Positions 3,871 to 30,692 are shown, numbered from the stretch's first letter. The stretch: DNA of 64,000 bases from Nitrososphaerota archaeon (GCA_038874475.1 JAVZCJ010000003.1:59463-123462), one strand, 5' to 3'. Numbers and translations: made by a program. The notes: generated from the sequence alone by a model not told the origin.

Positions 3871-4184
3871 TTAAATTTCTGAATATTTTAATTCATAAAG
3901 AACATTTCTTATAGATGTCTTTTTTTAAAGCAATTTCTATTAATAGTTCCTTAAACTTATCTTGCTTCTTGCTATTCACTTCCTGATAGAATTTTCTAAT
4001 TTCTTTTTCTAAGTCCTCGAGCTCTAATAAGGATTCGGTTTTTTTAATTTTTATTTTTTCTTGCTTTATGATTAAATATTTTTTGGAATGTTTCTAAAAT
4101 TTTTTCGTGTCAAATGTATACATAGTTTGCAGGTATAAGACTTAGAATTTTTTTAAATACTTTTTAAGAAAATTAAATATCTAA

Positions 4185-4694
4185 CTAATAAATTAGTGCC
4201 TTTTTTTCTATTGTTAGCCTTAGAAGAAAAATTAAATATAATGCTATTCCGATTAAAAATGAAAAAATGCAAAAAAGGTAAACTTGATTTGAAGAAAATA
4301 GTACAAAAAATGGATTGCCGAGAAAAGGATAGAAAGGATTCATTTCTTCATAGAAAAAAGCATCAAGTAAAATATGAAAATAAATACCGAAAAATGAAGT
4401 TGAGAAGATTTTTTTAAATGATGAATTTTGAGAAAGTTTGAAAATTTTCATTATTTCTTGTATTGGATTTTTTAGGAGATAGCAAATGATAGCTGTGAGA
4501 ATTGCTAATATTGAACTGCCTAAAAAAGTATGTAGAAAACCATGTAAAGGATAAGGCATATTAAGGAATAAAACAAAAAAAGGTTCGATATCAACTATAA
4601 CACTAGCAATAAGCAATGTTGAAAAATCTAATTTTTTAAATAGGAGCAAACCTATCCAAGAACTTGGTCCTAAATGAAAAGGTGTGAATGGCAT
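4185..4694 (-). CDS. polytopic membrane protein, DUF4184/YdjM-like putative metal-dependent hydrolase
   Basis: Starts MPFTPFHLGPSSW, has several hydrophobic helices, and has conserved His residues (PLHGFLHTFLGS, FHILLD). Confidence 0.45.
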   Translation of the reverse strand: MPFTPFHLGPSSWIGLLLFKKLDFSTLLIASVIVDIEPFFVLFLNMPYPLHGFLHTFLGSSILAILTAIICYLLKNPIQEIMKIFKLSQNSSFKKIFSTSFFGIYFHILLDAFFYEEMNPFYPFLGNPFFVLFSSNQVYLFCIFSFLIGIALYLIFLLRLTIEKKALIY

Positions 4695-4773
4695 GGATAT
4701 CTTTTTATGAAGAATGCAAAAGTATAAATGATATATGACTACCTAATTTTTCTTGAAATCTAATGAAATTATT

Positions 4774-5532
4774 TTATTTTGATGAAGCTTTCTTTTCTTC
4801 AAATGCTTTTTCTAGATATTTTTTTACTTCTTCTTGTGGCATTAATGAGTAAGTTTTTGTTTTTGTAGGAATATAAGCTATTTTAACAGTCCATTCTTCC
4901 TCGATTTTTTCAGTTGAGTATACTAATGATGATACTGCCAATTGAATAGCTTCTTCAAGCGTTAATTCTTTACTATATTTTTTCTCTAAATATTCTCTTA
5001 CTTTTTCAGCTCCTCTTCCAATGGACCATGCCAAATATTCTAGATACATTCCACTTGGATCTACAAGGAACAAGCTCGGACCTTTTTTATCAACTCCACC
5101 TATCAACAATCCTGCACCAAATGGTCTCACGCCGGCATGTTGAGTATACATTTGAGCCACGTCACCAATGTGCTTTGTGATTGCCTCAACAGCTGGATCT
5201 TCATCGTATGATAATCTTATAACTTGTGCTTGTATTCTTGCATTATCGACAAGTACTCTTGCATCCGAATTTAATCCAGAAGTAGCTGCACCTATGTGCT
5301 TATCTATTTGGAAAATTTTCCATGAAAAATTTGGATTCTGCAATTTCGTGTGTAATATTTCTTCAGCTGCCAAAACTACTCCTTCATTACAAGTAATTGC
5401 TAATGCAGTAGATCCAGACCTAACAGTCTCTAAGGCATATTCCACCTGGTAGAGACGACCTTGTGGAGAGAAAACTGTTATAGCTCTATCATAAGCCCCT
5501 GTTATTCCTAAAGCCAAATCCATCTCCTCCAT
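4774..5532 (-). CDS. psmA: proteasome subunit alpha
   Basis: The N-terminal YDRAITVFSPQGRLYQVEYA signature and the rest of the 252-aa sequence are typical of an archaeal 20S alpha subunit. Confidence 0.95.
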   Translation of the reverse strand: MEEMDLALGITGAYDRAITVFSPQGRLYQVEYALETVRSGSTALAITCNEGVVLAAEEILHTKLQNPNFSWKIFQIDKHIGAATSGLNSDARVLVDNARIQAQVIRLSYDEDPAVEAITKHIGDVAQMYTQHAGVRPFGAGLLIGGVDKKGPSLFLVDPSGMYLEYLAWSIGRGAEKVREYLEKKYSKELTLEEAIQLAVSSLVYSTEKIEEEWTVKIAYIPTKTKTYSLMPQEEVKKYLEKAFEEKKASSK

Positions 5533-5587
5533 TTATATCCTATTTTTCAATAATAATCCTTCTATTTAAAATTATATTTAAAAATTT

Positions 5588-5646
5588 GGGTCGGCAAAGC
5601 TCGTTTCTTCATCTTTTAATCAGTCTGGGACGGCCGCTTCATCCCC
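5588..5646 (-). ncRNA. candidate box C/D sRNA with variant boxes
   Basis: GC-rich island in AT-rich spacer. The minus-strand RNA is GGGG-AUGAAGC-GGCCGUCCCAGA-CUGA-UUAAAAG-AUGAAGA-AACGAGCUUUG-CCGA-CCC. The C-like box is at 5642-5636, D' CUGA at 5623-5620, C' at 5612-5606 and D-like CCGA at 5594-5591. Guide spacers are 12 and 11 nt, and there is a GGG/CCC terminal stem. The G-A dinucleotides needed for k-turns are present in all four boxes. Confidence 0.45.
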
Positions 5647-5816
5647 ATTATTCTATTTTCATATCCTAATTTAAATCTTTTTATACTAAAGTAAATCTTG
5701 GGATTTAAAATAATTGCTTCATTTCTTTTTACCTAATATTTTTGAAAATCCATTTTAAGTAAAAGTAATATAGAGTAAAAAACAAGATGAGAGCTCTAAA
5801 AAGTTTTCCTATATTT

Positions 5817-6140
5817 TCATTCTGTCTCTTTAACATATTTAATTACTCTACTTAATAATCCACTTGTTTTAATAGGGTCTATAACTATTTTATTATTTTC
5901 ATTTATAACCATTAAAGCTGCAAATAATTTATTTATTGAAAAATGATTGCATTGAATTATTCCTAATTTATTTGAAGAATCGTATAAAATATTTTTTGGA
6001 GAAACTTCTATTAAGCCTTTTAAACCAAATAAATTATAAATTGTTTTAGCAATTATTTTCTGTATATCATCTTTATTTATTTCTCCTTTTTCTGTTAACA
6101 CTTTATATAGTATATATCTTTTACGTATTTTCTTTAACAT
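5817..6140 (-). CDS. rnp2: RNase P protein component 2 (Pop5/Rpp14 family)
   Basis: 107-aa protein starting MLKKIRKRYILYKV and ending ...IKTSGLLSRVIKYV, which matches the size and pattern of archaeal Pop5. It sits next to psmA, as in the conserved archaeal neighbourhood. Confidence 0.7.
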   Translation of the reverse strand: MLKKIRKRYILYKVLTEKGEINKDDIQKIIAKTIYNLFGLKGLIEVSPKNILYDSSNKLGIIQCNHFSINKLFAALMVINENNKIVIDPIKTSGLLSRVIKYVKETE

Positions 6141-6487
6141 TTTTTAGCACTTATAAAATTAATATAAGCAATATTTCAACATTAATTGTCGATTAAATAT
6201 TAGAAAAACTAATATTTAATTATTCATCCAAACTAATTTTTAAAATGATAATTTTAATAAAATGAATAATTAAAAATAATTTATTAGATATGACTATATA
6301 TGGATTAAATGTGAGAATGGATATAATATTAATCTGAATATTTTAATGAAAATCATATGCATAAGAAGGATTAAATGGGCTTATCTGGTTTAGACGTTAG
6401 TCAATTATAACCAATTATGTATTATAAATTGAGAAGTTTTTTATTCATTTAAAAAAATATTTAAATATCTAATTTTAATTTTAAATT

Positions 6488-7117
6488 ATGCCATATAAAT
6501 TTAATTTTGACCTATCGCAAATTTCTCAACCACTTTTTAAAGAAATTGCTAGAATTTGTAATGAAAAGAATATACATATAAGAATTGGAGAAAAAGTAAG
6601 ATATTTAATTGAAAAATTTAGGATACCTGAAATAACTGGTTTAGGGATTTCTGATGCCATAACAATTATTGAAGATCTTATAGATATAAATATTAGAAAT
6701 CTTCTTGAAAAAGAAAAATTCTTAAAAACGAATAAAAGAGCTCTTTTCTTACCACATTGCTCAAGAAAATATATGGACAATAGATGCAAAGCATACTTTA
6801 ATCCAGAAGTCCCATCTTATTATTGTAATCATTGCTCTCCTGATTGTTTAATTAATCAAGCAACAATTCTTGCAAAAAAGTATGAGTATGATGTTTATGT
6901 TGTAGCAGGAGGTTCTTGTATTCCTAAAATATTAAAAGATAACCATTACGAGGGAATAGTAGGAGTTGCATGTTGCGAAGAACTTAAATTAGGAAGTAAT
7001 TATTTAAGAAATTTAAATATACCTGGACAAGGAGTGCCTCTCATTAAGAATGGTTGTGCCAATACAAAATTTAGTATTGAGAGTTTAGAAATAATTTTAA
7101 GAGAGAAAACAAATTAA
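6488..7117 (+). CDS. DUF116 family Cys-rich protein
   Basis: The Cys pattern LFLPHCSRKYMDNRC...CNHCSPDC...GGSCIPK...GVACCEEL is typical of DUF116 as I recall it. Confidence 0.6.
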   Translation: MPYKFNFDLSQISQPLFKEIARICNEKNIHIRIGEKVRYLIEKFRIPEITGLGISDAITIIEDLIDINIRNLLEKEKFLKTNKRALFLPHCSRKYMDNRCKAYFNPEVPSYYCNHCSPDCLINQATILAKKYEYDVYVVAGGSCIPKILKDNHYEGIVGVACCEELKLGSNYLRNLNIPGQGVPLIKNGCANTKFSIESLEIILREKTN

Positions 7118-7259
7118 ATGAATAAAACAAGATTCGCTAAAATTTTATTTTAATCATTCCTCTTTTATTTCACTTTCATTGATAGAGAATATTTTTAAAA
7201 GAATATAAAACTTTGCTAAATTAAAAATTTTTAAATTTTTATTCTATAATATTTATATA

Positions 7260-7321
7260 GCGATGATGAAAAATAGGAGCGGGGAATGAAAATAAATGAT
7301 TTAAACTCCTCTCAACTGAGC
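7260..7321 (+). ncRNA. candidate box C/D sRNA
   Basis: Perfect C box AUGAUGA at 7263-7269 and perfect D box CUGA at 7316-7319. Internal boxes are degenerate: D' GGGA at 7282-7285 and C' AUGAUUU at 7296-7302. Guide spacers are 12 and 13 nt, with a GC/GC terminal pairing. It is a local G+C island 55 nt upstream of the EamA gene. Confidence 0.5.
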
Positions 7322-7376
7322 AAAAATTTAAATTATTAATAGATTATTTTTTTATAAAAAAATAAGTGAATATTTC

Positions 7377-8246
7377 ATGGGAAAAAATATTAAAAATATT
7401 TATTTTCCATTATTAATTGCTGTGATAGCTGTATCTTTCTCTTCAATATTTATTAGATTAAGCAATGCTCCACCATTAATTATTGCAGCATATAGGCTTG
7501 GAATAGCTTCAATAATTCTTTTCCCATTCATGATTTATTATAATTCAAATATTTCTAAAAAATATTCCAGAAAAGATTTATTAAAAATATTTTTTATCAG
7601 CTTTTTTTTATCAATACACTTTGCATCATGGATAACATCTTTAAATTATACTTCTATTGCAAATTCTGTAATAATTGTTAATACCTCACCAATATTTGTT
7701 GCAATATTTTCATACTATATCTTAAAAGAAAAAATAAATTATAATACTATTATAGGAATTATAATAGCATTCATTGGAACAATAATTATAGCTATTGGAG
7801 ATTATGGAATTAATAGAAGCAATTTATTAGGAGATATTTATGCATTAATAGGAGCAATAGCTCTTTCAATATATATTATAGGTGGAAGAGAAATAAGGAA
7901 GAGAATGAATTTATATTTATATGTTACACCAGTTTATGCTATATCTGCAATATTTTTAATAATAGCTTGCATATTTTTAAAAATACGATTATATCCTTAT
8001 CCATTAAGAGAATATTTCATATTCCTTTTACTTGCAATAATTCCAACAATTTTTGGACATACAATTTATAATTGGATTTTAAAGAATGTTAAAGCAACAA
8101 CAGTAGCTATAAGTTTATTAGGCGAGCCGATTGGATCAACAATATTAGCAATAATAATATTTAATGAAATACCTGGATTTTTAACTTTTGTAGGTGGTCC
8201 AATAACTTTAATTGGAATATATATTGCTATGAGAAAAATTTATTAA
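7377..8246 (+). CDS. EamA/DMT-family transporter
   Basis: 289 aa with ten predicted helices arranged as two EamA-like halves. Confidence 0.85.
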   Translation: MGKNIKNIYFPLLIAVIAVSFSSIFIRLSNAPPLIIAAYRLGIASIILFPFMIYYNSNISKKYSRKDLLKIFFISFFLSIHFASWITSLNYTSIANSVIIVNTSPIFVAIFSYYILKEKINYNTIIGIIIAFIGTIIIAIGDYGINRSNLLGDIYALIGAIALSIYIIGGREIRKRMNLYLYVTPVYAISAIFLIIACIFLKIRLYPYPLREYFIFLLLAIIPTIFGHTIYNWILKNVKATTVAISLLGEPIGSTILAIIIFNEIPGFLTFVGGPITLIGIYIAMRKIY

Positions 8247-8276
8247 ATTTTAAATTGTAATATATGATGATTGAAA

Positions 8277-9133
8277 ATGATTGAAAGAATATGTGTAACA
8301 AATCTTGTTGACGATTCTGTTGATATGGGGCATCCAAATGTTTTAGCTAAACATGGACTAGCTTTATTCATAGAAATAGATTTTAATGAAAAAGAGAAAA
8401 TAAATATTTTAATGGATACTGGTCCTTCTCCAGATATAATTTTACATAATGCAAAAGAATTAAATATTGATTTGAGAGGAATAAATATGATCGTAATTAG
8501 TCATGCACATTATGATCATACTGGTGGATTAATAGGAGTTTTAAAACATATAAATAAAAAAGTATTGATTATAATGCATCCAAATTGTTTAAATTTAAAA
8601 TTTGCTGAAAAACCTTATCTAAGATATATAGGCATTCCATTTAAAATTTCAGAAATAGAAGAAGCAGGTGGAATACTATTGTTATCTTGCAAACCAGTAA
8701 AAATAACTCTGAAATAATCGTAAGTGATGAAATAGAAAGGATTAATGAATATGAAAAAGTAGAAGGTTTTTTAACATTGAAAGATTATGAAATTATTAAA
8801 GATAATCTTTTAGAAGACCAAGCACTTTTTCTTAAAATTAATGATAAAGGATTAGTAATTATTACAGGTTGTGCACATTCAGGAATAATTAATACAATTG
8901 AATATGCTAAAAAAATTACTGGTTTAAATAAAATACATGCAATTTTAGGGGGTTTTCATTTAATAAATGCTAATGAAGAAAAAATAAAAATAACAATGGA
9001 TGAAATGAAAAAAATAAATCCTGAAAAAATTTTTCCTTGTCATTGTACTGGGCAAAAAGCAATAATGGAATTCATTAAAAATTTTAAAGATAAATGTATT
9101 CCAATTCAAGCAGGAAAAAGTATTGAATTATAA
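8277..9133 (+). pseudogene. MBL-fold metallo-hydrolase (COG1237 / MJ0301-like family) interrupted by a frameshift
   Basis: ORF 8271..8717 carries HAHYDHTGG. ORF 8687..9133, in another frame, carries GCAHSGIINT, GGFHL and CHCTG. Together they make one ~285-aa MBL protein. The frames swap at an A5 run at 8699-8703. Confidence 0.7.
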
Positions 9134-20809: not shown

Positions 20810-21163
20810 ATGAGAATAATAATACCAATATTAGAAAATAAAGGAATAGATTCAAAAGTATCTTCACATTTTGGTAGAGCTCCTTTTTTCGCTTTATATA
20901 ATTCTGAAAAGAATGAGTTAGAAATAATTGAAAATAAGAGTGAACATTTTGGTGGCATAGGTAGACCAACAGATATTTTATTAAAATACAAACCAGATGT
21001 TATATTTGCGATTGGAATAGGACCTAGAGCAGTTGAGTTATTGAAATCAAATAATATAAGAATAGAAACAGGAGATTTTCAAACTGTTAGAGAAATTATT
21101 GAAAATAAAGACAGATTAAAAAAATTAGAAGAAGTTTGTAAACATAGTAGAAGACAAATTTAA
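20810..21163 (+). CDS. NifX/NifB-C-terminal-like (dinitrogenase FeMo-cofactor-binding fold) protein
   Basis: 117 aa. SSHFGRAPFFALYN...DVIFAIGIGPRAVELL has the pattern of the Nitro_FeMo-Co domain family. Confidence 0.7.
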   Translation: MRIIIPILENKGIDSKVSSHFGRAPFFALYNSEKNELEIIENKSEHFGGIGRPTDILLKYKPDVIFAIGIGPRAVELLKSNNIRIETGDFQTVREIIENKDRLKKLEEVCKHSRRQI

Positions 21164-21196
21164 TATAGAGGCGAAAGCTTTTTCCTATTCTATAAG

Positions 21197-21880
21197 ATGC
21201 CTGAAGTTATTTTAAAAGTAAAAAATTTAAATGTAGAATTAAATGGAGAAAAAATTTTAGAAAATTTATCTTTTGAAGTAAAAGAAGGAGAAGTTTTAAC
21301 AATCTTAGGACCAAATGGAGCAGGAAAAACAGTATTACTTAAAACCTTATTAAAACTCTTTCCTTATAAAGGAGAAATTGAATGGAAATCAGGAATTAAA
21401 ATTGGCTATGTTCCTCAAAGATTACCTTTTATAAAAGATATCCCAATGAGCGTTAAAGAATTTTTTAAATTGAAAAATGCTTCTGAAAATGAAGCTAAAA
21501 ATATTTTAAATTTAATAGGTTTAGAAGAAAAAATATTAGAAAAGAAAATTGGAGACTTATCTTCAGGTCAATTTCAAAGAATTTTAGTTGGTTGGGCATT
21601 AGTTTTAAGTCCTCAAGTTTTGCTTTTTGACGAACCAATGGCTGGTATTGATATTGGTGGACAAGAATCAATATATAATCTTTTAGAAAAATTAAGAAAA
21701 GAAAAAAATTTAACAATTTTATTAGTTACTCATGATTTAAGCCTTGTTTATACTTTTGCTAATAATTGTCTTTGTTTAAATAAAAAAATATTATGTTATG
21801 GTGCTCCTAAGAAATTAACTCCTGAACTTCTTTCTCAACTTTATGGTGGAGAAATAAAAATTTATCAACACTTCCATTAA
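21197..21880 (+). CDS. znuC: metal (Zn/Mn-type) ABC transporter ATPase
   Basis: GPNGAGKTV, LSSGQFQRI, LLFDEPMAGID. ZnuC-like length (227 aa). Confidence 0.8.
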   Translation: MPEVILKVKNLNVELNGEKILENLSFEVKEGEVLTILGPNGAGKTVLLKTLLKLFPYKGEIEWKSGIKIGYVPQRLPFIKDIPMSVKEFFKLKNASENEAKNILNLIGLEEKILEKKIGDLSSGQFQRILVGWALVLSPQVLLFDEPMAGIDIGGQESIYNLLEKLRKEKNLTILLVTHDLSLVYTFANNCLCLNKKILCYGAPKKLTPELLSQLYGGEIKIYQHFH

Positions 21881-21892
21881 ACCAAAAGAGGA

Positions 21893-22663
21893 ATGAATAT
21901 GGAAACCCAATTTTTCTTAAGTTTAATTTGTGGAATATTCATTGGAGGAGTAGCAGGATATTTAGGTTCTTTAATGCTTTCAAAAAGAATGGCTTTAGTT
22001 GCTGGCCCTCTTGGTCATTTAACTTTACCAGGAATTGCTTTAGCTTTAATTTATGGCTTTGATATATCTTTAGGAGCTTTTCCTTTTGTTATTTTAGGAA
22101 TATTCTTAATATGGATTTTTGAAATAAAAACAAAACTGCCAATGGAAGCTTTAACTGCAATTGTTTTTGCATCTGGAGTTTCAACTGCTTTTTTATTTTT
22201 ACCAATCGAACAAGCAGAAGAAGCTTTAATTGGTGATATTTCTAAAGTAAGTTTTGAAGATACAATTATTTTAGTTTTATCTTGTCTTTTTATCTTTTTA
22301 ATAATTAAAAAAATTTATTCAAAAATGATTTTGATTAATATTTCTGAAGATTTAGCTAAAGTTCAAGGAATAGATATTAAAAAATACAATTTCGTTTATC
22401 TTTTTTTAATAGCTATTATAGTTGCTTTAGGAGTAAAACTTGTTGGTGGACTTTTAACCGCTGCTTTAGTAGCTATACCAGCTTGCACAGCTAGAAATTT
22501 AAGTAAAAACCTTTCTCAATATCGTTTTAATGCTTTGTTCTTTGGTTCAATAAGTTGCTTTTTTGGAATTTTGTTTTTTGAAATAACAAAATTTCCAGCC
22601 GGTCCATTAATTATTTTAATATCAACTTTCTTTTTCTTAATTTCTTTAATTTTTAAAATATAA
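21893..22663 (+). CDS. znuB: metal ABC transporter permease (ABC-3 family)
   Basis: 256-aa multi-pass protein directly downstream of the ATPase, with a ZnuB/MntB-like helix pattern. Confidence 0.78.
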   Translation: MNMETQFFLSLICGIFIGGVAGYLGSLMLSKRMALVAGPLGHLTLPGIALALIYGFDISLGAFPFVILGIFLIWIFEIKTKLPMEALTAIVFASGVSTAFLFLPIEQAEEALIGDISKVSFEDTIILVLSCLFIFLIIKKIYSKMILINISEDLAKVQGIDIKKYNFVYLFLIAIIVALGVKLVGGLLTAALVAIPACTARNLSKNLSQYRFNALFFGSISCFFGILFFEITKFPAGPLIILISTFFFLISLIFKI

Positions 22664-23042: not shown

Positions 23043-23661
23043 AAAGCAAGATTTTTACAAGGAATTAAAAGCCATCAATTTCAAGAAATTGTAAAACAAA
23101 AATTACAAGAAATTCATGGAAATTCAGTAAAGCAATGAACTTTTTCAAAGAATAAATGCGAGAATAAGAAGACAAAACAAAGATTGGATAGAGAAAACTT
23201 CAAAGAAGCTTATTGATATTGCATTAGAAAGTATTGAAAAATACAATTGTAATGTTGCGATAGTTTCTTTTGAAGATCTTAAAGAATATAAAGCTGGAAA
23301 TAATAGCAAGAAAACAAACAAGAAAAATGCTGAATGGTTAAGGAAAATAATTCAAAGAACATTTGAAAAATCTTTGTGGAATTATCCTACAAAGGTATTA
23401 ACTTATTTGCCAACATTCAATAAAAATCAAAGAAATATAAAACAAATCTTAGTTAATGCTGACTATACTTCAAGAATATACAGTAAATGTGGAAATGAAG
23501 GAAAATTAATAAAATATATAGCAAAAGGAAAAATAAAGAGATACTTTAAATGCAATAATTGTGGATATAAAGACGATAAACATTTCAATGCTTCAAGCAA
23601 TATTGCAAAAAGAGCAATTGAATATCTTAAAAAGGTTGCTTTTCCCGAACCCATGTGCTAA
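23043..23661 (+). pseudogene. tnpB: IS200/IS605-type tnpB remnant (C-terminal RuvC/zinc-ribbon half only, frameshifted)
   Basis: The two frames read ...KQKLQEIHGNSVKQ* then NELFQRINARIRRQNKDWIEKTSKKLIDIALESIEKYNCNVAIVSFEDL...NADYTSRIYSKCGNEG...FKCNNCGYKDDKHFNASSNIAKRA. The RuvC-II E, the YTS motif, the CxxC..CxxC ribbon and the NA..NIA motif are recognisable. The N-terminal ~200 aa (including the RuvC-I Asp) are missing. Confidence 0.7.
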
Positions 23662-23982: not shown

Positions 23983-24399
23983 TTAGAGTTTTCTAGGATC
24001 TATTCTTATTAATCCCGGTATAGTATCATATACATCATCTGTTGAGATTATTTTATGATCTTCAACTTGATTTAAAGCGGTAGCAGCATAATATGCATCA
24101 AATATTGATTTTAAATTGTATTGTCTCATTAATGTTAAAGCTAAAAGGTCTATTTCATATGTTGTTTCTAAGAATTTCAAATTTTCTATAGCTGTTATCG
24201 ATGCAGCTCTAGCAATGTACTCATCTAAGCTAACTCCCTCTTCCTTTGAAATATAATAAAGTTCATGTAAACACTCTCTTGAGGTATAAACTATTCCAAA
24301 TTCTCCTACAACAATTCTTTTTATAATATTCTCAGCAGTAGCTTTTAACCAATCTTCTTTTTTAATAAATGCATATAGTATATCTGTTTCAATCATCAA
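23983..24399 (-). CDS. vapC: PIN-domain ribonuclease toxin VapC
   Basis: 138 aa with acidic PIN residues (IETDIL, ..HELYY.., IFDAYYAATAL, ISTDD). It overlaps the upstream antitoxin gene by 11 nt. Confidence 0.85.
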   Translation of the reverse strand: MMIETDILYAFIKKEDWLKATAENIIKRIVVGEFGIVYTSRECLHELYYISKEEGVSLDEYIARAASITAIENLKFLETTYEIDLLALTLMRQYNLKSIFDAYYAATALNQVEDHKIISTDDVYDTIPGLIRIDPRKL

Positions 24400-24643
24400 T
24401 TTGTTTTCTTCTCCTTGCTCTTTTTATAGCATCTTCTGATGCTAATTTCTCAGCTAATTCCTTTAACTCTTTTCTTTCATGTTTTGATGAAAGCCAAGAA
24501 CTTGCATATTCATGCGGCTTTACCGGTAATGGAATTGTAATGAAGAATGTTCCAGCTGGTATGATTACTGCTTTTCCTCCTCCAACACTTATTTCTTTTG
24601 GAATAGTTATTCTTCTTCTCTCATCGATCTTAACTATAGCCAT
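24389..24643 (-). CDS. vapB: AbrB/SpoVT-type antitoxin VapB
   Basis: MAIVKIDERRRITIPKEI is a swapped-hairpin AbrB-type N-terminus. 84 aa, directly upstream of vapC. Confidence 0.8.
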   Translation of the reverse strand: MAIVKIDERRRITIPKEISVGGGKAVIIPAGTFFITIPLPVKPHEYASSWLSSKHERKELKELAEKLASEDAIKRARRRKQIDD

Positions 24644-25595: not shown

Positions 25596-26129
25596 TTATA
25601 TTTTAATAGGTTGTAATATTTTTTCTAACTTACTAATATTAACATAAGGACAATCTTTCAAATCTTTTTTTCCAGAAAAAAGTTTTACACTAAAAGCATA
25701 GCAACTTTCTTCTCCACATTTTTTACAATTAGTCTTTGGCAATATTTTATAGATTTGTATAGGATTTGTTTGCTTTTTTAAATCAAGTAATTTTTCATCA
25801 GGCTTTCCATAATTTTTAAGATATGTTATTGCTCTATTTATCAAATTCTTTACTTCATTCATCAATTGTTCTGCTTCTTTATTATCTTTAACATATGTCA
25901 TGCTTATTTTTCCATTAGAGAAAATTGTTATTAAATGCATTCGATAAGTATATGTTAAGCATCCAAGTTTTTCAGAATAATTTGCATTAGGAATATAAAG
26001 ATAAAGGATTGGAAGTACATCTCCTAAATTTTTATCTGCTTGAGCAATAAATTTTATTCTCTTTGAGTCTGCTGTGCAAGCAGATATCTTCTTTATTTCA
26101 ATTTTTTCTACAAAACCTGAAAATATCAC
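25596..26129 (-). CDS. Fe-S-binding protein with C-terminal RnfB/AcsC-type Cys4 domain
   Basis: The C-terminus LPKTNCKKCGEESCYAFSVKLFSGKKDLKDCP fits the LPxxNCxxCGxxxCxxFAxxL..G.....CP pattern of the small Fe-S domain at the N-terminus of RnfB and CODH/ACS gamma. The N-terminal ~125 aa are unassigned. Confidence 0.55.
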   Translation of the reverse strand: MIFSGFVEKIEIKKISACTADSKRIKFIAQADKNLGDVLPILYLYIPNANYSEKLGCLTYTYRMHLITIFSNGKISMTYVKDNKEAEQLMNEVKNLINRAITYLKNYGKPDEKLLDLKKQTNPIQIYKILPKTNCKKCGEESCYAFSVKLFSGKKDLKDCPYVNISKLEKILQPIKI

Positions 26130-26177
26130 GCTCGATCTACATTGTATTATTTTTGTTAAATATATATTTTTCCATTA

Positions 26178-26342
26178 TTATCCACAACAACCACTACCAG
26201 AGCTACTAGAGCTAGTAACTAAACGATTTTTAGTATATAGTTCTTGCCAACAATTTTGACAAACTTTAATCATACCTAAATCTTTGTGATTAGCATATAG
26301 GAGAGTAAAACTTTCTTTTTTACAAATTTCACATTTTCCCAT
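26178..26342 (-). CDS. unannotated 54-aa zinc-ribbon protein with Ser-rich linker and C-terminal CCG
   Basis: My hand translation is MGKCEICKKESFTLLYANHKDLGMIKVCQNCWQELYTKNRLVTSSSSSGSGCCG, running from ATG 26342-26340 to TAA 26180-26178. It sits 14 nt downstream of the ferredoxin gene and 48 nt upstream of the next gene, on the same strand. It is below the 60-aa cutoff of the ORF track. Confidence 0.45.
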   Translation of the reverse strand: MGKCEICKKESFTLLYANHKDLGMIKVCQNCWQELYTKNRLVTSSSSSGSGCCG

Positions 26343-26356
26343 TTAAATCATCTTTT

Positions 26357-26644
26357 TCATATATAACCATACTTTTTATATAATGACCTAAGCATCTCAT
26401 TTAATTCTTTTCTCGACGGAAATATTATTGCTTCAGCTGGACAATTAAGAGCACATGCACTACATCCAACAACACAATTATATGGTTGAATAACAATAAC
26501 TTTTTTCTCCCCTTCTTCTGCATAAACACCATTTGGACAAAACCTTAAGCAAGTTTTACAATTAATGCATTTATTATAATCTATTTTAGGATACCATTTT
26601 ATTTCTTCTCTAGGTATTCCAAAAAATGTCATTTTAAATCCCAA
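26357..26644 (-). CDS. 2x[4Fe-4S] ferredoxin-domain protein
   Basis: Two cluster motifs: CINCKTCLRFCP and CVVGCSACALNCP. Confidence 0.8.
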   Translation of the reverse strand: MGFKMTFFGIPREEIKWYPKIDYNKCINCKTCLRFCPNGVYAEEGEKKVIVIQPYNCVVGCSACALNCPAEAIIFPSRKELNEMLRSLYKKYGYI

Positions 26645-26648
26645 AAAA

Positions 26649-27029
26649 CTATGTGGATTTTCCTATTTTTCCAATAACTTCAGCAACTTTTTCTATTGCT
26701 TCTTTTGTTGTCATATTTCTAAGGTCTAATGAAATTAATTGTTTATCTATATCTAAACCTTTTTCATTAAATGCGTCTTTAAACATCTTTTTTTGCATTC
26801 TGGGATCGCAAGCACCAATAATATAAATGATATTTTTATCTCCTTCCTTAAGATAGTCCTTGAAAAATCTTTCACCATCATCAACACAAAGCTGTGGATG
26901 AATAATAGCATATTCCACGTTAAGCTCATTTCTAACATAATTTATGAATTTCCATAATTCCAATTTTGCAAAACCAGGGCATTCACCTGTGCAAAAACAC
27001 ATTATAAATCTTGGTTTTTCATTCATCAA
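26649..27029 (-). CDS. small Cys-containing redox protein resembling the N-terminal Fe-S domain of HdrA (tentative)
   Basis: FIMCFCTGECPGF...HPQLC...IIGACDPRMQKKMFKDAFNEKGLD...LDLRN parallels the HdrA N-terminal pattern (V.C.CG.N......C....VVA.CSPR.HE.TFR......G.NPY....NIR) as I recall it. Confidence 0.45.
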   Translation of the reverse strand: MMNEKPRFIMCFCTGECPGFAKLELWKFINYVRNELNVEYAIIHPQLCVDDGERFFKDYLKEGDKNIIYIIGACDPRMQKKMFKDAFNEKGLDIDKQLISLDLRNMTTKEAIEKVAEVIGKIGKST

Positions 27030-27078
27030 TATCGCCTCTATAAATTTTAAATATTTTATTTAACTAATATATAAAGTT

Positions 27079-27104
27079 TATAACAATATTTAAATATTGT
27101 TATA
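27079..27104. promoter_or_regulatory. 26-bp perfect palindrome, candidate ArsR operator overlapping the divergent promoters
   Basis: TATAACAATATTT/AAATATTGTTATA ends 15 nt before the arsR ATG. It lies within the 89-bp spacer shared with the divergent Fe-S operon. Confidence 0.5.
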
Positions 27105-27118
27105 TATTACTTTATATT

Positions 27119-27439
27119 ATGAATCAAGAGATCGATATAAATAAGTTTCGAGCAAAAATTTTTAAAGCATTATCAGATCCTATTAGACTTGAAATAATTA
27201 GTCTTTTACGTAAAAAAGAATGGTGTGCTTGCGACTTAATTCCATATCTTAATATAGTTCAACCTTTAGTTTCTAGGCACTTAAAAATTTTAAAAGATTG
27301 TGGAATAGTAGTTTATAGAAAAGAAGGAAATAAAAGGATATACTCGATTACAGATAAAAGGATACTTAAAGTAATCGATACTCTATCACCAGAACTAATT
27401 GAAAGCATTTCAAAACATGTGATTAAGCAAATAATTTAG
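27119..27439 (+). CDS. arsR: ArsR/SmtB-family metalloregulator
   Basis: Winged HTH FKALSDPIRLEIISLLRKKEWCACDLIPYLNIVQPLVSRHLKILKDCGIV. WCACDL occupies the position of the As(III)-binding ELCVCDL motif. Confidence 0.85.
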   Translation: MNQEIDINKFRAKIFKALSDPIRLEIISLLRKKEWCACDLIPYLNIVQPLVSRHLKILKDCGIVVYRKEGNKRIYSITDKRILKVIDTLSPELIESISKHVIKQII

Positions 27440-28539: not shown

Positions 28540-28842
28540 CTAGAACATTCGTTCTAAAGCTTCTTTGCCTAACATTCCTACATTAATGCCTAATGCTTTG
28601 GCACGCGATGTAACAGATACAACCTTCAATTGCAGAGCATCTTCAATTTTCGTTAATCCTACTACTTTAGCTGCTGTTAAGCCACGTTTATCCAATTCAT
28701 TAATATCAAAGTTGCCGCAAACAAGTAAACCTTTCTTGGCTATTAGCACTATAATTGCTGGTTTTTCTGGTGCTTCTGGATTTCCAATACGAATTCCTAA
28801 TACTGTGCCCAACTTAACATTAAGAAGTTTAATTTCAATCAT
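28540..28842 (-). CDS. DUF1805 (YunC-like) protein
   Basis: 100 aa. LIAKKGLLVCGNFDINELDKRGLTAAKVVGLTKIEDALQ...AKALGINVGMLGKEAL has the pattern of DUF1805. It overlaps the acr3 stop. Confidence 0.55.
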   Translation of the reverse strand: MIEIKLLNVKLGTVLGIRIGNPEAPEKPAIIVLIAKKGLLVCGNFDINELDKRGLTAAKVVGLTKIEDALQLKVVSVTSRAKALGINVGMLGKEALERMF

Positions 28843-29857
28843 TATGTTTACCCTCCTGTTTCGAAAATGATGTTAAATTAGATATATTACGTAAATTTCT
28901 CTGAAACACTCTATAGAATCCTACAGCTGTTAGCATCTGAAATGCAAAACCTATAGCAATTACTGATGCTGTAAGCATTCCAAAAGAAAGGATTGCAATA
29001 CCTAAACCTATTGGTAAGTTTTTCATTCCCGAGGAATAAGTGATCGCTATAGTCTTTTTATAAGGGAATTTCTTGCTAGTGAGATAAGCAACGCTAAACA
29101 TGGAGGGAAATGTGATGGCGATAGAGATAAGAAGAGATGGAAGCACACTAACATTTTTCATCAGAAGCGGCATTGAAGTATTAACAGCTATGAACATCAA
29201 AAGGATGGCACAAAGGCTCGAGATTGCAGGACAGAGAGGAAGATAATGTTTAACGTCAGCTTTCTTCTCGAGAACTTCACGTAAACCAATTCCAATAAAA
29301 ATTGGGATTAAAATTGTGCAAATTAGATTTAGAAACATATCTATAATGTTAATCTTTACATAACTACCAGCAAAATAAAACATTATAACTGGAATGAGGA
29401 AAGGCGCCACTATCATAGTTCCTGTATTAATTACAGTTGCAAGAGGCACATCTCCTTCAAGCAAACCAGTCCAGACAATTGCCATTCCTGCACATGGAAT
29501 TGCACCTATTAAAATTATTCCTGTAGCAATCTTTGGATTAGGAATGAGAAGAGAAACCACATAACATAAAATTGGTGAGAAAATAAAATTGAGAATTATT
29601 CCAATACTAAACCCCCTAATATCTTTTAATGCTAAAAGAAAATTTTTGAACTTTATTGTAAAGCCCATGGATGCTATCATCAAAATTGTAAGCGGAATGC
29701 TGAAAATCTTAAGCAATTCTCCAAGATATGATGTGTAGAAGCCTATGATTATTGAAATAATGAGCGTTGCTACTATTATGTACGAATAATTCTTCCTCAT
29801 AAATTCAGCAAATTCAATAATCATTTTCCTCACTTCTCTTATGTTCTTATTTTTCAT
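28835..29857 (-). CDS. acr3: arsenite efflux permease, ACR3 family
   Basis: Ten-helix BART-superfamily protein carrying GAIPCAGMAIVWTGLLEGD. This corresponds to the ACR3 hallmark (A)PC(T)AMV.VW..LA.GD with the essential Cys. Confidence 0.75.
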   Translation of the reverse strand: MKNKNIREVRKMIIEFAEFMRKNYSYIIVATLIISIIIGFYTSYLGELLKIFSIPLTILMIASMGFTIKFKNFLLALKDIRGFSIGIILNFIFSPILCYVVSLLIPNPKIATGIILIGAIPCAGMAIVWTGLLEGDVPLATVINTGTMIVAPFLIPVIMFYFAGSYVKINIIDMFLNLICTILIPIFIGIGLREVLEKKADVKHYLPLCPAISSLCAILLMFIAVNTSMPLLMKNVSVLPSLLISIAITFPSMFSVAYLTSKKFPYKKTIAITYSSGMKNLPIGLGIAILSFGMLTASVIAIGFAFQMLTAVGFYRVFQRNLRNISNLTSFSKQEGKHND

Positions 29858-29863
29858 CTATCG

Positions 29864-30244
29864 TTACTGTTCTTTAAACTCTTTTAACGCAGGCAATGAG
29901 CGAGAAAAGGTGCTCGAAGCCAATTCAAACCTTGCAATTAATATAGCTTCAAGTACCTCATCTTTACTTATTCCGCTCCTTTTGGCTATTTTTGCATAAG
30001 TATCAACGCATGATTCGTTTCCAATAGCTACACTACAAGCTAATGCTATCAATAGTTTATACTTAGACGGAATTTTCCCTTCTTTCATTGCAAATTTTTG
30101 GCTTCTTGCATGCTCAACAATAATGTCTGGAGCTAATTCTGCGAGAATTTTCATAGGCTCTGTGACTTGCCCCGCCTTTTTCTTCATTGTTTCCAAGAAA
30201 TCGTTTACAATATCATGTTCACTATTAATTTTTATATTTGTCAT
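29864..30244 (-). CDS. carboxymuconolactone decarboxylase (AhpD-like) family protein
   Basis: 126-aa all-helical protein. KYKLLIALACSVAIGNESCVDTYAKIAKRSGISKDEVLEAI resembles the CMD-domain core. Confidence 0.5.
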   Translation of the reverse strand: MTNIKINSEHDIVNDFLETMKKKAGQVTEPMKILAELAPDIIVEHARSQKFAMKEGKIPSKYKLLIALACSVAIGNESCVDTYAKIAKRSGISKDEVLEAILIARFELASSTFSRSLPALKEFKEQ

Positions 30245-30248
30245 TATT

Positions 30249-30692
30249 TTACACCTCTTTATGTAATGCTTCTTTTCTTATTTTATCTACGATAAGCTTA
30301 ACATCTTCATTATTGATATCGAATGTAGGAATTTTCTTTATAGTATCTGCTACAACTAAATTATAGTCTATCTTATTAATTCCAGCTTGCTCCACTACTT
30401 TTTTAGCACATTGATTTTGACATCCATTTATAATTATTAATTTTTTAGCTCTTTTCATAATATCCACATAATAAGGCGTTTTAGCGCCTACAGGTGTAAC
30501 ACAACACATTCTTGCTTCTCCACTTTTCGTTAATTCAACAGCGGCTAAATATCCAATTAATCCAACATTTGCTGCTCCTCCACATGCTAAGATTATATTA
30601 AGATTTTCAGCTTCTTTATGACAAATAGGTAGCATTCTAGGTTTATTCTCACTCACTGAGCTATTCTCTTTGTTTATTTTCATATTTCTCAC
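30249..30692 (-). CDS. DGC-domain putative metal-chelating protein
   Basis: ILACGGAANVGLIGYLAAVEL...ARMCC...IINGCQNQCAKK fits the four-Cys DGC domain, here with NGC in place of DGC. Confidence 0.6.
   Translation of the reverse strand: MRNMKINKENSSVSENKPRMLPICHKEAENLNIILACGGAANVGLIGYLAAVELTKSGEARMCCVTPVGAKTPYYVDIMKRAKKLIIINGCQNQCAKKVVEQAGINKIDYNLVVADTIKKIPTFDINNEDVKLIVDKIRKEALHKEV

Follow-up and report, generated by a model that had tools for sequence, protein, structure and literature searches.

What do four small genes do together when they are packed on one strand, encode cysteine-rich and Fe-S proteins and are transcribed away from an ArsR-type regulator? The question is raised by a 64,000-nucleotide stretch of DNA (hereafter the window) from a Nitrososphaerota archaeon (GCA_038874475.1, JAVZCJ010000003.1:59463-123462), which is very AT-rich (27% G+C) and has its closest relatives among uncultured metagenome-assembled genomes of Bathyarchaeia and 'Nitrososphaeria'. 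An initial annotation of the window, made from the sequence alone, had described such an operon on the minus strand at 25596-27029, and we found its four open reading frames (ORFs) as described, on one strand throughout and separated by gaps of ~16, 14 and 48 nt. The four domain calls made at that time, namely an HdrA-N-terminal-like protein, a 2x[4Fe-4S] ferredoxin, a zinc ribbon with a CC tail and an AcsC/RnfB-type Fe-S domain, also held in profile searches. The locus is best explained as one lineage's arrangement of an ArsR-regulated metalloid/thiol-stress island that is widespread among Bathyarchaeia and related archaea and has versions in Chloroflexi and Odinarchaeia as well.

As a regulatory frame, a detoxification island under ArsR control is already known. 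The Fe-S module, the dithiol-tailed zinc ribbon and the protein that joins a TATA-binding protein (TBP) repeat to an Fe-S domain (hereafter the TBP/Fe-S protein) are uncharacterised in the searchable literature. In the literature searched, we found neither the HdrA-N-like protein, its dedicated ferredoxin, the dithiol-tailed zinc ribbon nor the TBP/Fe-S protein described as a component of ars operons, and no characterisation of the combination, which the annotation had likewise not recognised as a described system. Bathyarchaeia are abundant uncultured archaea of sediments and hot springs whose handling of arsenic and thiol stress is essentially unstudied. For these organisms the analysis defines a predicted ArsR operator and regulon, a recurrent island architecture and three attached families of uncharacterised proteins.

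The ArsR regulator and its predicted operator

The regulator is a member of the ArsR/SmtB family, as it matched HTH_5 (PF01022) at 59.2 bits (cut-off 22) and the NCBIfam model HTH_metalloreg (NF033788) at 90.8 bits (cut-off 55), and its nearest solved structures in a PDB search were ArsR, SmtB and CadC. The CAC metalloid motif that had been noted in it is formed by C36-A-C38 within the helix alpha3 segment E34-W-C36-A-C38-D-L. The corresponding type-1 ArsR site reads ELCVCDL, and the third cysteine of R773 ArsR is absent from the window protein. In more than 25 loci, an orthologue of this regulator (ArsR1) stands at the head or on the flank of the same island.

The divergent spacer between arsR and the HdrA-N-like gene is 89 bp long (92 bp from the probable ATG start of the latter) and contains, as reported earlier, a perfect 26-bp palindrome, TATAACAATATTTAAATATTGTTATA, which occurs once in the window, where shuffled sequences predict 0.01 matches. 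In a sister genome (L015-17; loci other than the window are cited by our own handles) the 45 nt nearest to arsR, including the palindrome, are identical to those of the window, and this identity breaks ~20 nt past the palindrome, precisely where the downstream cargo gene differs. In genomes of quite different composition, the arsR1 start codon is again preceded, at 14-16 nt, by an element of the form TATA(A/G)CAATATTTAAATATTG(T/C)TATA, and the ArsR1 orthologues that carry it are clearly diverged from the window ArsR, with pairwise alignment scores of ~55-60% of the self-score. A scan for the 16-nt core with at most one mismatch across 1.115 Mb of fetched related loci gave 43 occurrences, 31 of which lie 0-60 nt upstream of an ArsR-family start, 25 of these at the identical centre-to-start distance of 28 nt. 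Two cases were found in which the core lies ~36 nt upstream of an HdrA-N-like gene that has no adjacent ArsR (L059 and L063). An inverted repeat at fixed spacing before arsR in ~25 loci, as read from sequence, argues that the palindrome is a phylogenetically conserved operator, far beyond what chance would produce, and the ArsR control that had been proposed for the operon is supported by this conservation.

The arsR ATG is preceded at 27-28 nt by the centre of the palindrome, TTTAAATA (27089-27096), a sequence similar to an archaeal TATA box. In archaeal promoters, 27-28 nt from TATA box to start is the spacing expected for a leaderless gene; arsR may accordingly be leaderless, with the palindrome acting as a bidirectional promoter. 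From general knowledge of such arrangements, a symmetric TATA-like centre between ArsR half-sites would allow a single operator to serve both divergent transcripts. Longer second ArsR genes (ArsR2-type) in L036, L037 and L040 are preceded by AACATATTTAAATATTTT, which has the core ATATTTAAATAT in common with the ArsR1 operator and differs from it in the flanks. Upstream of the neighbouring DGC-CMD-SBF operon no clear operator was found, the only TATA-like match having three mismatches.

A modular island and its protein families

The genomic context of the TBP/Fe-S gene was surveyed in 39-40 non-redundant loci, using hidden Markov models (HMMs) built for the neighbouring families. ArsR was present within 2.5 kb of it in 26 of these loci, a ferredoxin with the N-terminal GIPRE motif described below in 24-25, small thioredoxin-like genes in ~19, an ArsP-type permease in 16, DGC in 13, PadR in 7 and SBF in 5; of the 20 loci in which both flanks extend for at least 2.5 kb, 15 had ArsR. 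An ArsC-like low-molecular-weight (LMW) phosphatase lies no more than 5 kb away in 7/40 loci, directly following the TBP/Fe-S gene in L001, and the gene immediately 3' is a second ArsR in 14/40 and PadR in 5/40. Homologues of the 177-aa TBP/Fe-S protein and of the 126-aa HdrA-N-like protein are thereby recurrently linked to ArsR together with ArsP, ArsE-like, DGC, ArsC-like and SBF genes, an outcome in favour of the initial annotation, which had named the absence of such linkage in other genomes as a refutation.

In its archetypal form the operon, divergent from ArsE-like and ArsP genes, consists of ArsR1, two thioredoxin-like genes, a ferredoxin, the TBP/Fe-S gene and ArsR2, sometimes followed by Usp and SBF. 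In ArsR-led operons of Bathyarchaeia the TBP/Fe-S gene is the constant last member, whatever the cargo, and the slot between ArsR1 and this gene is variable: it may hold the two thioredoxin-like genes and the ferredoxin, one or two DGC genes, CcdA with a thioredoxin-like gene, SBF, TauE, or the HdrA-N-like, ferredoxin and zinc-ribbon genes seen here. Three syntenic genomes, which have a histone deacetylase and a phosphoribosyltransferase gene on one side and a nitrilase gene on the other, illustrate this variability, as the slot holds the window's genes in one, these genes plus DGC in another (L051-55; split in L051/52) and TauE alone in the third (L015-17). The four genes therefore form an operon here and not an obligate four-part machine, so the fixed four-gene system implied by the initial annotation has to be given up in favour of a cassette assembled from independently distributed modules. 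In L005-7 the TBP/Fe-S gene itself holds the divergent position usual for ArsR, with no ArsR present and only ArsE-ArsP as partners. The Chloroflexi island L009 encodes, at 6844-8760, a 638-aa protein in which several thioredoxin-like repeats are fused to a CcdA/DsbD-like membrane domain, placed between an HdrA-N-like/ferredoxin pair and a distant 177-aa TBP/Fe-S homologue.

One such module is formed by the HdrA-N-like protein and its ferredoxin. Residues 6-96 of the 126-aa protein matched the NCBIfam HdrA model, and a PDB profile search aligned it with the first ~90 residues of HdrA (E=9e-4), including the CxC, 'MC' and 'AC' motifs. The top seven Foldseek matches of its AlphaFold2 (AF2) model (pLDDT 89) were all HdrA (TM ~0.6, probability 1.0), and its five invariant cysteines (C10, C12, C16, C47 and C73) include the four cluster-ligand positions of the HdrA N-terminal domain (PDB 5odc, 7bkb and 9sfi), the fold of which it shares. 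Unlike HdrA, however, the protein is free-standing and ArsR-controlled, has a fifth invariant cysteine, and lacks both an FAD/thioredoxin-reductase domain and HdrB/C partners, and the full-length model NF041778 scored only 20 bits against a cut-off of 1400. The profile and structural matches therefore identify it as a free-standing HdrA N-terminal [4Fe-4S] domain and not as HdrA, and from sequence and model it probably binds a [4Fe-4S] cluster. There were 387 homologues at E <= 0.001, and the 120 of these that were listed are 65-91% identical and come from Bathyarchaeia, Odinarchaeia, Brockarchaeota and Chloroflexi.

In every locus examined, the HdrA-N-like gene is followed by a ~90-100-aa 2x[4Fe-4S] ferredoxin with the subfamily motif 'GIPRE-x-I-x-W-(Y/H)-P' at its N-terminus. 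The window ferredoxin has Fer4 family matches and is 43% identical to the ferredoxin directly 5' of the TBP/Fe-S gene in the archetypal island. HgcB was its best NCBIfam match and was rejected as an identification, since the score was 47 bits against a cut-off of 99, the terminal CC is missing and the locus has no HgcA-like gene. Look-ups seeded with the HdrA-N-like protein revealed an adjacent ArsR in 5/6 distinct contexts, a Brockarchaeota locus being without it, and the minimal form is a two-gene operon of HdrA-N-like and ferredoxin genes divergent from ArsR (L134-136). These observations show that the two genes are an independent module, always paired and usually ArsR-linked.

In the 54-aa protein, a Ser/Gly linker joins a zinc ribbon (CxxC...CxxCW) to a vicinal dithiol, GCCG, at the C-terminus. 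It had no Pfam or NCBIfam family match, and a search of the protein database retrieved only the query, which is why its relatives were recovered from DNA. Six-frame searches of the fetched loci and a metagenome scan yielded 95 of them, with at least 64 unique sequences sharing the ribbon cysteines and the Ser/Gly-rich linker; a few of the 64 are truncated, and all the complete ones end in a CC, CxC or CxxC pair. Genes of this family are mostly missed by gene callers. Candidate assignments as a lanthipeptide or aMBF1 were rejected, as the matches were not significant (E ~0.06) and modifying enzymes are not nearby. Vicinal-dithiol tails are known from the CC pairs of ArsD, the C-terminal CC of HgcB and MerA and the GCUG/SCCS tail of large thioredoxin reductase. 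The 54-aa protein resembles these in its flexible end with a cysteine pair, which would be suited to chelation of soft metals or metalloids or to dithiol/disulfide shuttling, but its tail is attached to a 40-residue zinc ribbon and not to a thioredoxin fold, a ferredoxin or a flavoenzyme, and there is no detectable similarity to those families.

The order HdrA-N-like, ferredoxin, zinc ribbon recurs in five distinct loci, followed by DGC and the TBP/Fe-S gene (L051-55) or by ArsE-like and ArsP genes (L101/103). A second clade of the ribbon adjoins generic ferredoxin, IscU/NifU-like, MinD/Mrp-ferredoxin ATPase and NifX-like genes. This clade is exemplified by L085 at 3888-8082 (also L077-L100), where an FrhB-like gene is present too and no ArsR or ars-type genes are nearby. 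In L068, a 107-aa ORF with a weak HesB/IscA-like match (5665-5988; E=4e-4) and a DUF169 protein (4925-5650) lie between the HdrA-N-like operon and the zinc-ribbon gene; DUF169 recurs in L014. A different small zinc-ribbon motif, C.KCGKVFWTN..LC.DC, occurs free-standing or fused to the C-terminus of an island ferredoxin (L001 1274-1447; L034 4754-5104).

The Fe-S domain had been considered the sole recognisable part of the 177-aa protein; this view needs revision, as a TBP-type domain is also present. The C-terminal domain carries a [4Fe-4S] motif of the corrinoid iron-sulfur protein (CFeSP)/AcsC type, C135-x2-C138-x4-C143-x16-C160, in which all four cysteines are invariant. It matched PF04060 at 51.2 bits (cut-off 23) and is similar to the N-terminal domain of CFeSP (38-47% identity over ~50 residues in Foldseek; E=3e-10 in the PDB profile search). 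The Cx2Cx4Cx16C motif is common to the N-terminal domain of AcsC/CdhE and RnfB, whereas the corrinoid-binding and TIM-barrel domains of AcsC/CdhE are lacking (of the 450 positions of model NF003195, the match spans only 2-54, at 64 bits for a cut-off of 306), and a TBP repeat is fused instead.

This single TBP repeat (residues ~25-107) makes up the N-terminal two-thirds of the protein. Pfam TBP gave E=0.002 with the window protein and matched 18/26 family members (best E=1e-4), below the gathering score. In the PDB profile search, the only matches of the family at E <= 0.1 were CFeSP and archaeal TBPs (2e-4 to 0.09), with M. jannaschii TBP at E=2e-4 and both of its repeats matching. The AF2 model (pLDDT 90, pTM 0.86) matched archaeal TBPs in Foldseek with probability 1.0 at 21-23% identity. 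Three independent lines from profiles and modelling thus indicate true homology to TBP. As in TBP and single-TBP-domain proteins (PMC3597702), the S1-H1-S2-S5-H2 repeat and the hallmark segment '(L/I)IFSxGK(I/V)xxT' are present, the latter kept as 'IFSxGKIxxT'. It differs from TBP in having one repeat, not two in tandem, which places it in the TBP-domain superfamily as a single-repeat member, and in its C-terminal Fe-S domain, the replacement of the central DNA-contact Asn by Lys and an extra N-terminal strand with an invariant cysteine (Cys18; motif 'PCxAD..K.R..A') that persists in remote relatives. The pI of the domain, ~8.7, is uninformative.

The wider family comprises 281 representative clusters at E<1e-10, and no experimental work on it was found in the literature searched. 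Some members are fusions, to an ArsR/HTH_20-like winged helix in 4/17 of the ~270-aa proteins examined (P0252, P0259, P0278 and P0321; weak matches, E ~0.01), to a Se_S_carrier domain (PF11823, E=6e-15), to a NifS-like cysteine desulfurase (P0379) or to a ~200-aa domain without a family. Tandem diverged TBP-repeat/Fe-S paralogues occur in L027 (6809-7981) and L040 (7405-8558), where their pairing could bring two TBP repeats together in a heterodimer.

A proposed electron relay and competing explanations

Several features connect the island with arsenic. The window ArsR has a CxC site and the island permease belongs to the ArsP Pfam family; the small thioredoxins of the island matched the 'MTH895/ArsE' model at 49 bits (cut-off 62), and the best NCBIfam matches of its LMW phosphatases were arsenate reductases, at 101-109 bits and below the cut-off. 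In P. mercurii ND132, arsenic induces an ArsR-ArsP-ArsE(PF13192)-DGC(PF08859) operon (bioRxiv 10.1101/2022.10.17.512643). The island family resembles classical and extended ars operons in its ArsR/SmtB repressor with alpha3 cysteines and palindromic operator, and in its ArsP-type permease, MTH895/ArsE-like thioredoxins, DGC and ArsC-like LMW phosphatases. The window itself differs from classical ars operons in being without ArsC, ArsA, ArsD or a proven Acr3, and caution is also advised by the island members TauE, CcdA, AhpD-like and GcvH-like, which point to general thiol/sulfur chemistry.

The SBF/BASS-type transporter gene, 1.4 kb from ArsR, had been taken as evidence of an Acr3 efflux operon ~1.5 kb away. 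This assignment is unproven, as the protein scored 52 bits with the Acr3 model TIGR00832 (cut-off 283) and 73 bits with BASS, and its closest structures are ASBT homologues. Its segment 'PCAGMAIVW', on the other hand, resembles the Acr3 cysteine motif. An LMW-phosphatase HMM derived from the island's homologues detected no ArsC in the 64-kb window, nor did tblastn with the R773 and pI258 ArsC sequences as queries, which agrees with the absence of an arsenate reductase noted initially; ArsC may sit elsewhere in the genome, of which 64 kb is a small part.

Our preferred explanation, held tentatively and at not quite an even chance, is that the cassette is an ArsR-derepressed electron relay at the ferredoxin level that serves cysteine-based proteins handling metalloids or thiols; its electron-transfer function is inferred. 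An ArsR dimer would occupy the outer half-sites of the palindrome and block the TATA-like centre used by both divergent transcripts, and As(III), Sb(III) or another thiol-reactive ligand binding at C36/C38 would release the repressor. The induced Fe-S proteins might then form a low-potential relay in which a cellular reductant feeds the HdrA-N-like protein and the ferredoxin, and these in turn pass electrons to the CFeSP-type cluster in the TBP/Fe-S protein. Such a relay would maintain the island's cysteine carriers and enzymes in a reduced state, competent to bind or process metalloid-thiol adducts, its clients being the dithiol tail of the zinc ribbon in the window and, elsewhere, ArsE-like thioredoxins, DGC, CcdA and thioredoxin-type ArsC. 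It would be a ferredoxin-driven counterpart of the NADPH-thioredoxin supply in classical ars systems, and, if real, would represent an alternative route of metalloid detoxification for strict anaerobes. The archetypal operon, with a ferredoxin, an Fe-S protein and two thioredoxin-like proteins, mirrors the logic of ferredoxin:thioredoxin reductase, but there is no sequence match: the 177-aa protein had no match to that family, whose CPC...CHC pattern it does not have.

A number of observations weigh against the relay. The TBP/Fe-S protein has a single extra invariant cysteine (Cys18), unlike the disulfide of ferredoxin:thioredoxin reductase. It also occurs with TauE only (L015) or with ArsE-ArsP only (L005-7), with no local ferredoxin, and in these loci a regulator therefore fits better than an enzyme. 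The fusion of some relatives to ArsR-like winged helices is a further point, and the cysteine desulfurase and Se/S-carrier fusions, together with the IscU, Mrp and NifX neighbours of one zinc-ribbon clade, direct attention to Fe-S or sulfur trafficking. As for the arsenic connection, two alpha3 cysteines are no proof that the window ArsR is specific for arsenite, and the identity of the neighbouring transporter as Acr3 is unproven.

A regulatory role competes with electron transfer because the 177-aa protein is a TBP-domain/Fe-S protein whose family is labelled 'ArsR family metal-binding transcriptional regulator' in JGI. In this alternative, the main rival of the relay and a close one, although clearly less likely than not, the TBP/Fe-S protein would be a redox- or metalloid-sensing regulatory subunit working with ArsR-type repressors, or a DNA-binding homodimer, and the other genes would be its regulated cargo. 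It would account for the TBP/Fe-S and ArsR genes standing as constant bookends around variable cargo, with three different cargos in the three syntenic genomes, as well as for the second ArsR or PadR gene so often directly downstream and for the occupation of ArsR's divergent place in L005-7. Rosetta-stone fusions of ArsR/HTH_20-like winged helices with the TBP-like and Fe-S domains point the same way, and precedents exist in a Methanosarcina protein that combines a TBP domain with a winged helix (Brindefalk et al. 2013; PMC3597702) and in the sensory role of PF04060 in sigma-54 activators (PMC6615313). The homology to TBP extends to the DNA-contact face, where the hallmark Phe and Thr are kept, but the central Asn there is replaced, and the pTM of 0.86 suggests that the Fe-S domain is packed on the TBP-like domain, where it could mask the DNA-binding face. 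The winged-helix matches are also weak and confined to the four proteins mentioned, most fusions being to Se/S-carrier-like domains and one to a cysteine desulfurase, and the best-known roles of CFeSP-type domains are in electron transfer. Should a regulatory role be true, no TBP-domain protein that bears an Fe-S cluster would have had its target promoter defined before this one, with a bearing on the diversification of the TBP fold. A more specific and improbable proposal is that the protein is an Fe-S-regulated TBP paralogue, of which a symmetric homodimer of single repeats would read the palindromic TATA-like centre ATATTTAAATAT of ArsR1 operators, with the [4Fe-4S] cluster and Cys18 making occupancy dependent on redox state or arsenite damage, in concert with ArsR. 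If so, binding to ATATTTAAATAT would make it a dedicated cofactor-sensing, basal-factor-like regulator of a stress regulon. Both the relay and the regulator models are directly testable, given the small size of the proteins and the defined DNA site.

Arsenite and other thiophiles damage Fe-S proteins, and the cassette might instead supply or repair Fe-S clusters or relay sulfur under stress, with the four proteins as replacement carriers or as donors of clusters or persulfide. This possibility, which we regard as quite improbable, would explain the fusions of TBP/Fe-S relatives to the cysteine desulfurase and Se_S_carrier domains, the large zinc-ribbon clade next to IscU/NifU-like, MinD/Mrp-ferredoxin ATPase and NifX-like genes, the HesB/IscA-like ORF (a weak match) directly 5' of the ribbon gene in L068 and the existence of a minimal ArsR-divergent HdrA-N-like/ferredoxin pair without a substrate-handling gene. 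The four proteins of the window, however, have no match among known scaffold or carrier families, the cluster bound by the CFeSP-type domain is a stable redox cluster, and the neighbours are mainly thioredoxin-like, permease and ArsC-like genes, not Suf or Isc. Least supported, and very improbable, is the idea hinted at in the initial annotation that the operon is a new Fe-S-dependent arsenate reductase standing in for the ArsC absent from the window. The missing ArsC, the control by ArsR and the invariant cysteine beside a low-potential cluster domain would fit such an enzyme, but the hint is weakened by the occurrence of the TBP/Fe-S gene near ArsC-like phosphatases in the seven loci noted above, adjacent in L001, and after TauE, CcdA or SBF cargo without an arsenate link. 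The HdrA-N-like/ferredoxin pair moreover occurs alone, and an ArsC gene could lie in the larger part of the genome outside the 64 kb.

Coordinates and neighbouring genes

The start of the ferredoxin at 26632 is likely because the resulting size agrees with that of the 90-aa orthologue in L051. The other gene calls, the palindrome and the neighbouring operon, are listed below.

Table. Coordinates of the cassette, its regulator and predicted operator, and the adjacent operon (window positions)
Feature	Coordinates	Strand	Remarks
TBP/Fe-S gene	25596-26129	-	177 aa; GTG start
Zinc-ribbon gene	26178-26342	-	54 aa
2x[4Fe-4S] ferredoxin gene	26357-26644	-	95 aa; probable start ATG at 26632, giving 91 aa
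HdrA-N-like gene	26649-27029	-	ORF, 125-126 aa; probable start ATG at 27026
Perfect 26-bp palindrome (13+13), TATAACAATATTTAAATATTGTTATA	27079-27104		Predicted conserved ArsR1 operator
ArsR gene	27119-27439	+	106 aa; C36-x-C38 in helix alpha3
Neighbouring operon	28540-30692	-	DGC, AhpD/CMD-like, SBF/BASS-type, DUF1805; Pfam matches
DUF1805 gene	28540-28842	-	Pfam match
SBF/BASS-type transporter gene	28835-29857	-	Pfam match
AhpD/CMD-like gene	29864-30244	-	Pfam match
DGC gene	30249-30692	-	Pfam match

In the window, the DGC/AhpD-like/SBF/DUF1805 operon separates the phosphoribosyltransferase gene from the histone-deacetylase gene. These two genes adjoin directly in L015 and L051, and the operon therefore represents an insertion or deletion difference between the genomes. 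All four of its families (DGC, AhpD/CMD-like, SBF and DUF1805) recur in the same islands.

An Rfam scan of the window found nothing. On the other side of the cassette, at a distance of ~3 kb, a NifX-like (Nitro_FeMo-Co) gene is located directly 5' of genes for an ABC ATPase and an ABC-3 permease of a metal-type transporter (20810-22663, plus strand). The region at 22.7-24.0 kb is without long ORFs and contains a TnpB/Cas12f1-like fragment (TNB domain, E=3.6e-11) at 23374-23661 on the plus strand, which is probably a decayed IS200/605-type element. A PIN-domain gene at 23983-24399 on the minus strand overlaps a small upstream ORF without a Pfam match (24389-24643, also minus), and the two look like a VapBC-type toxin-antitoxin pair.

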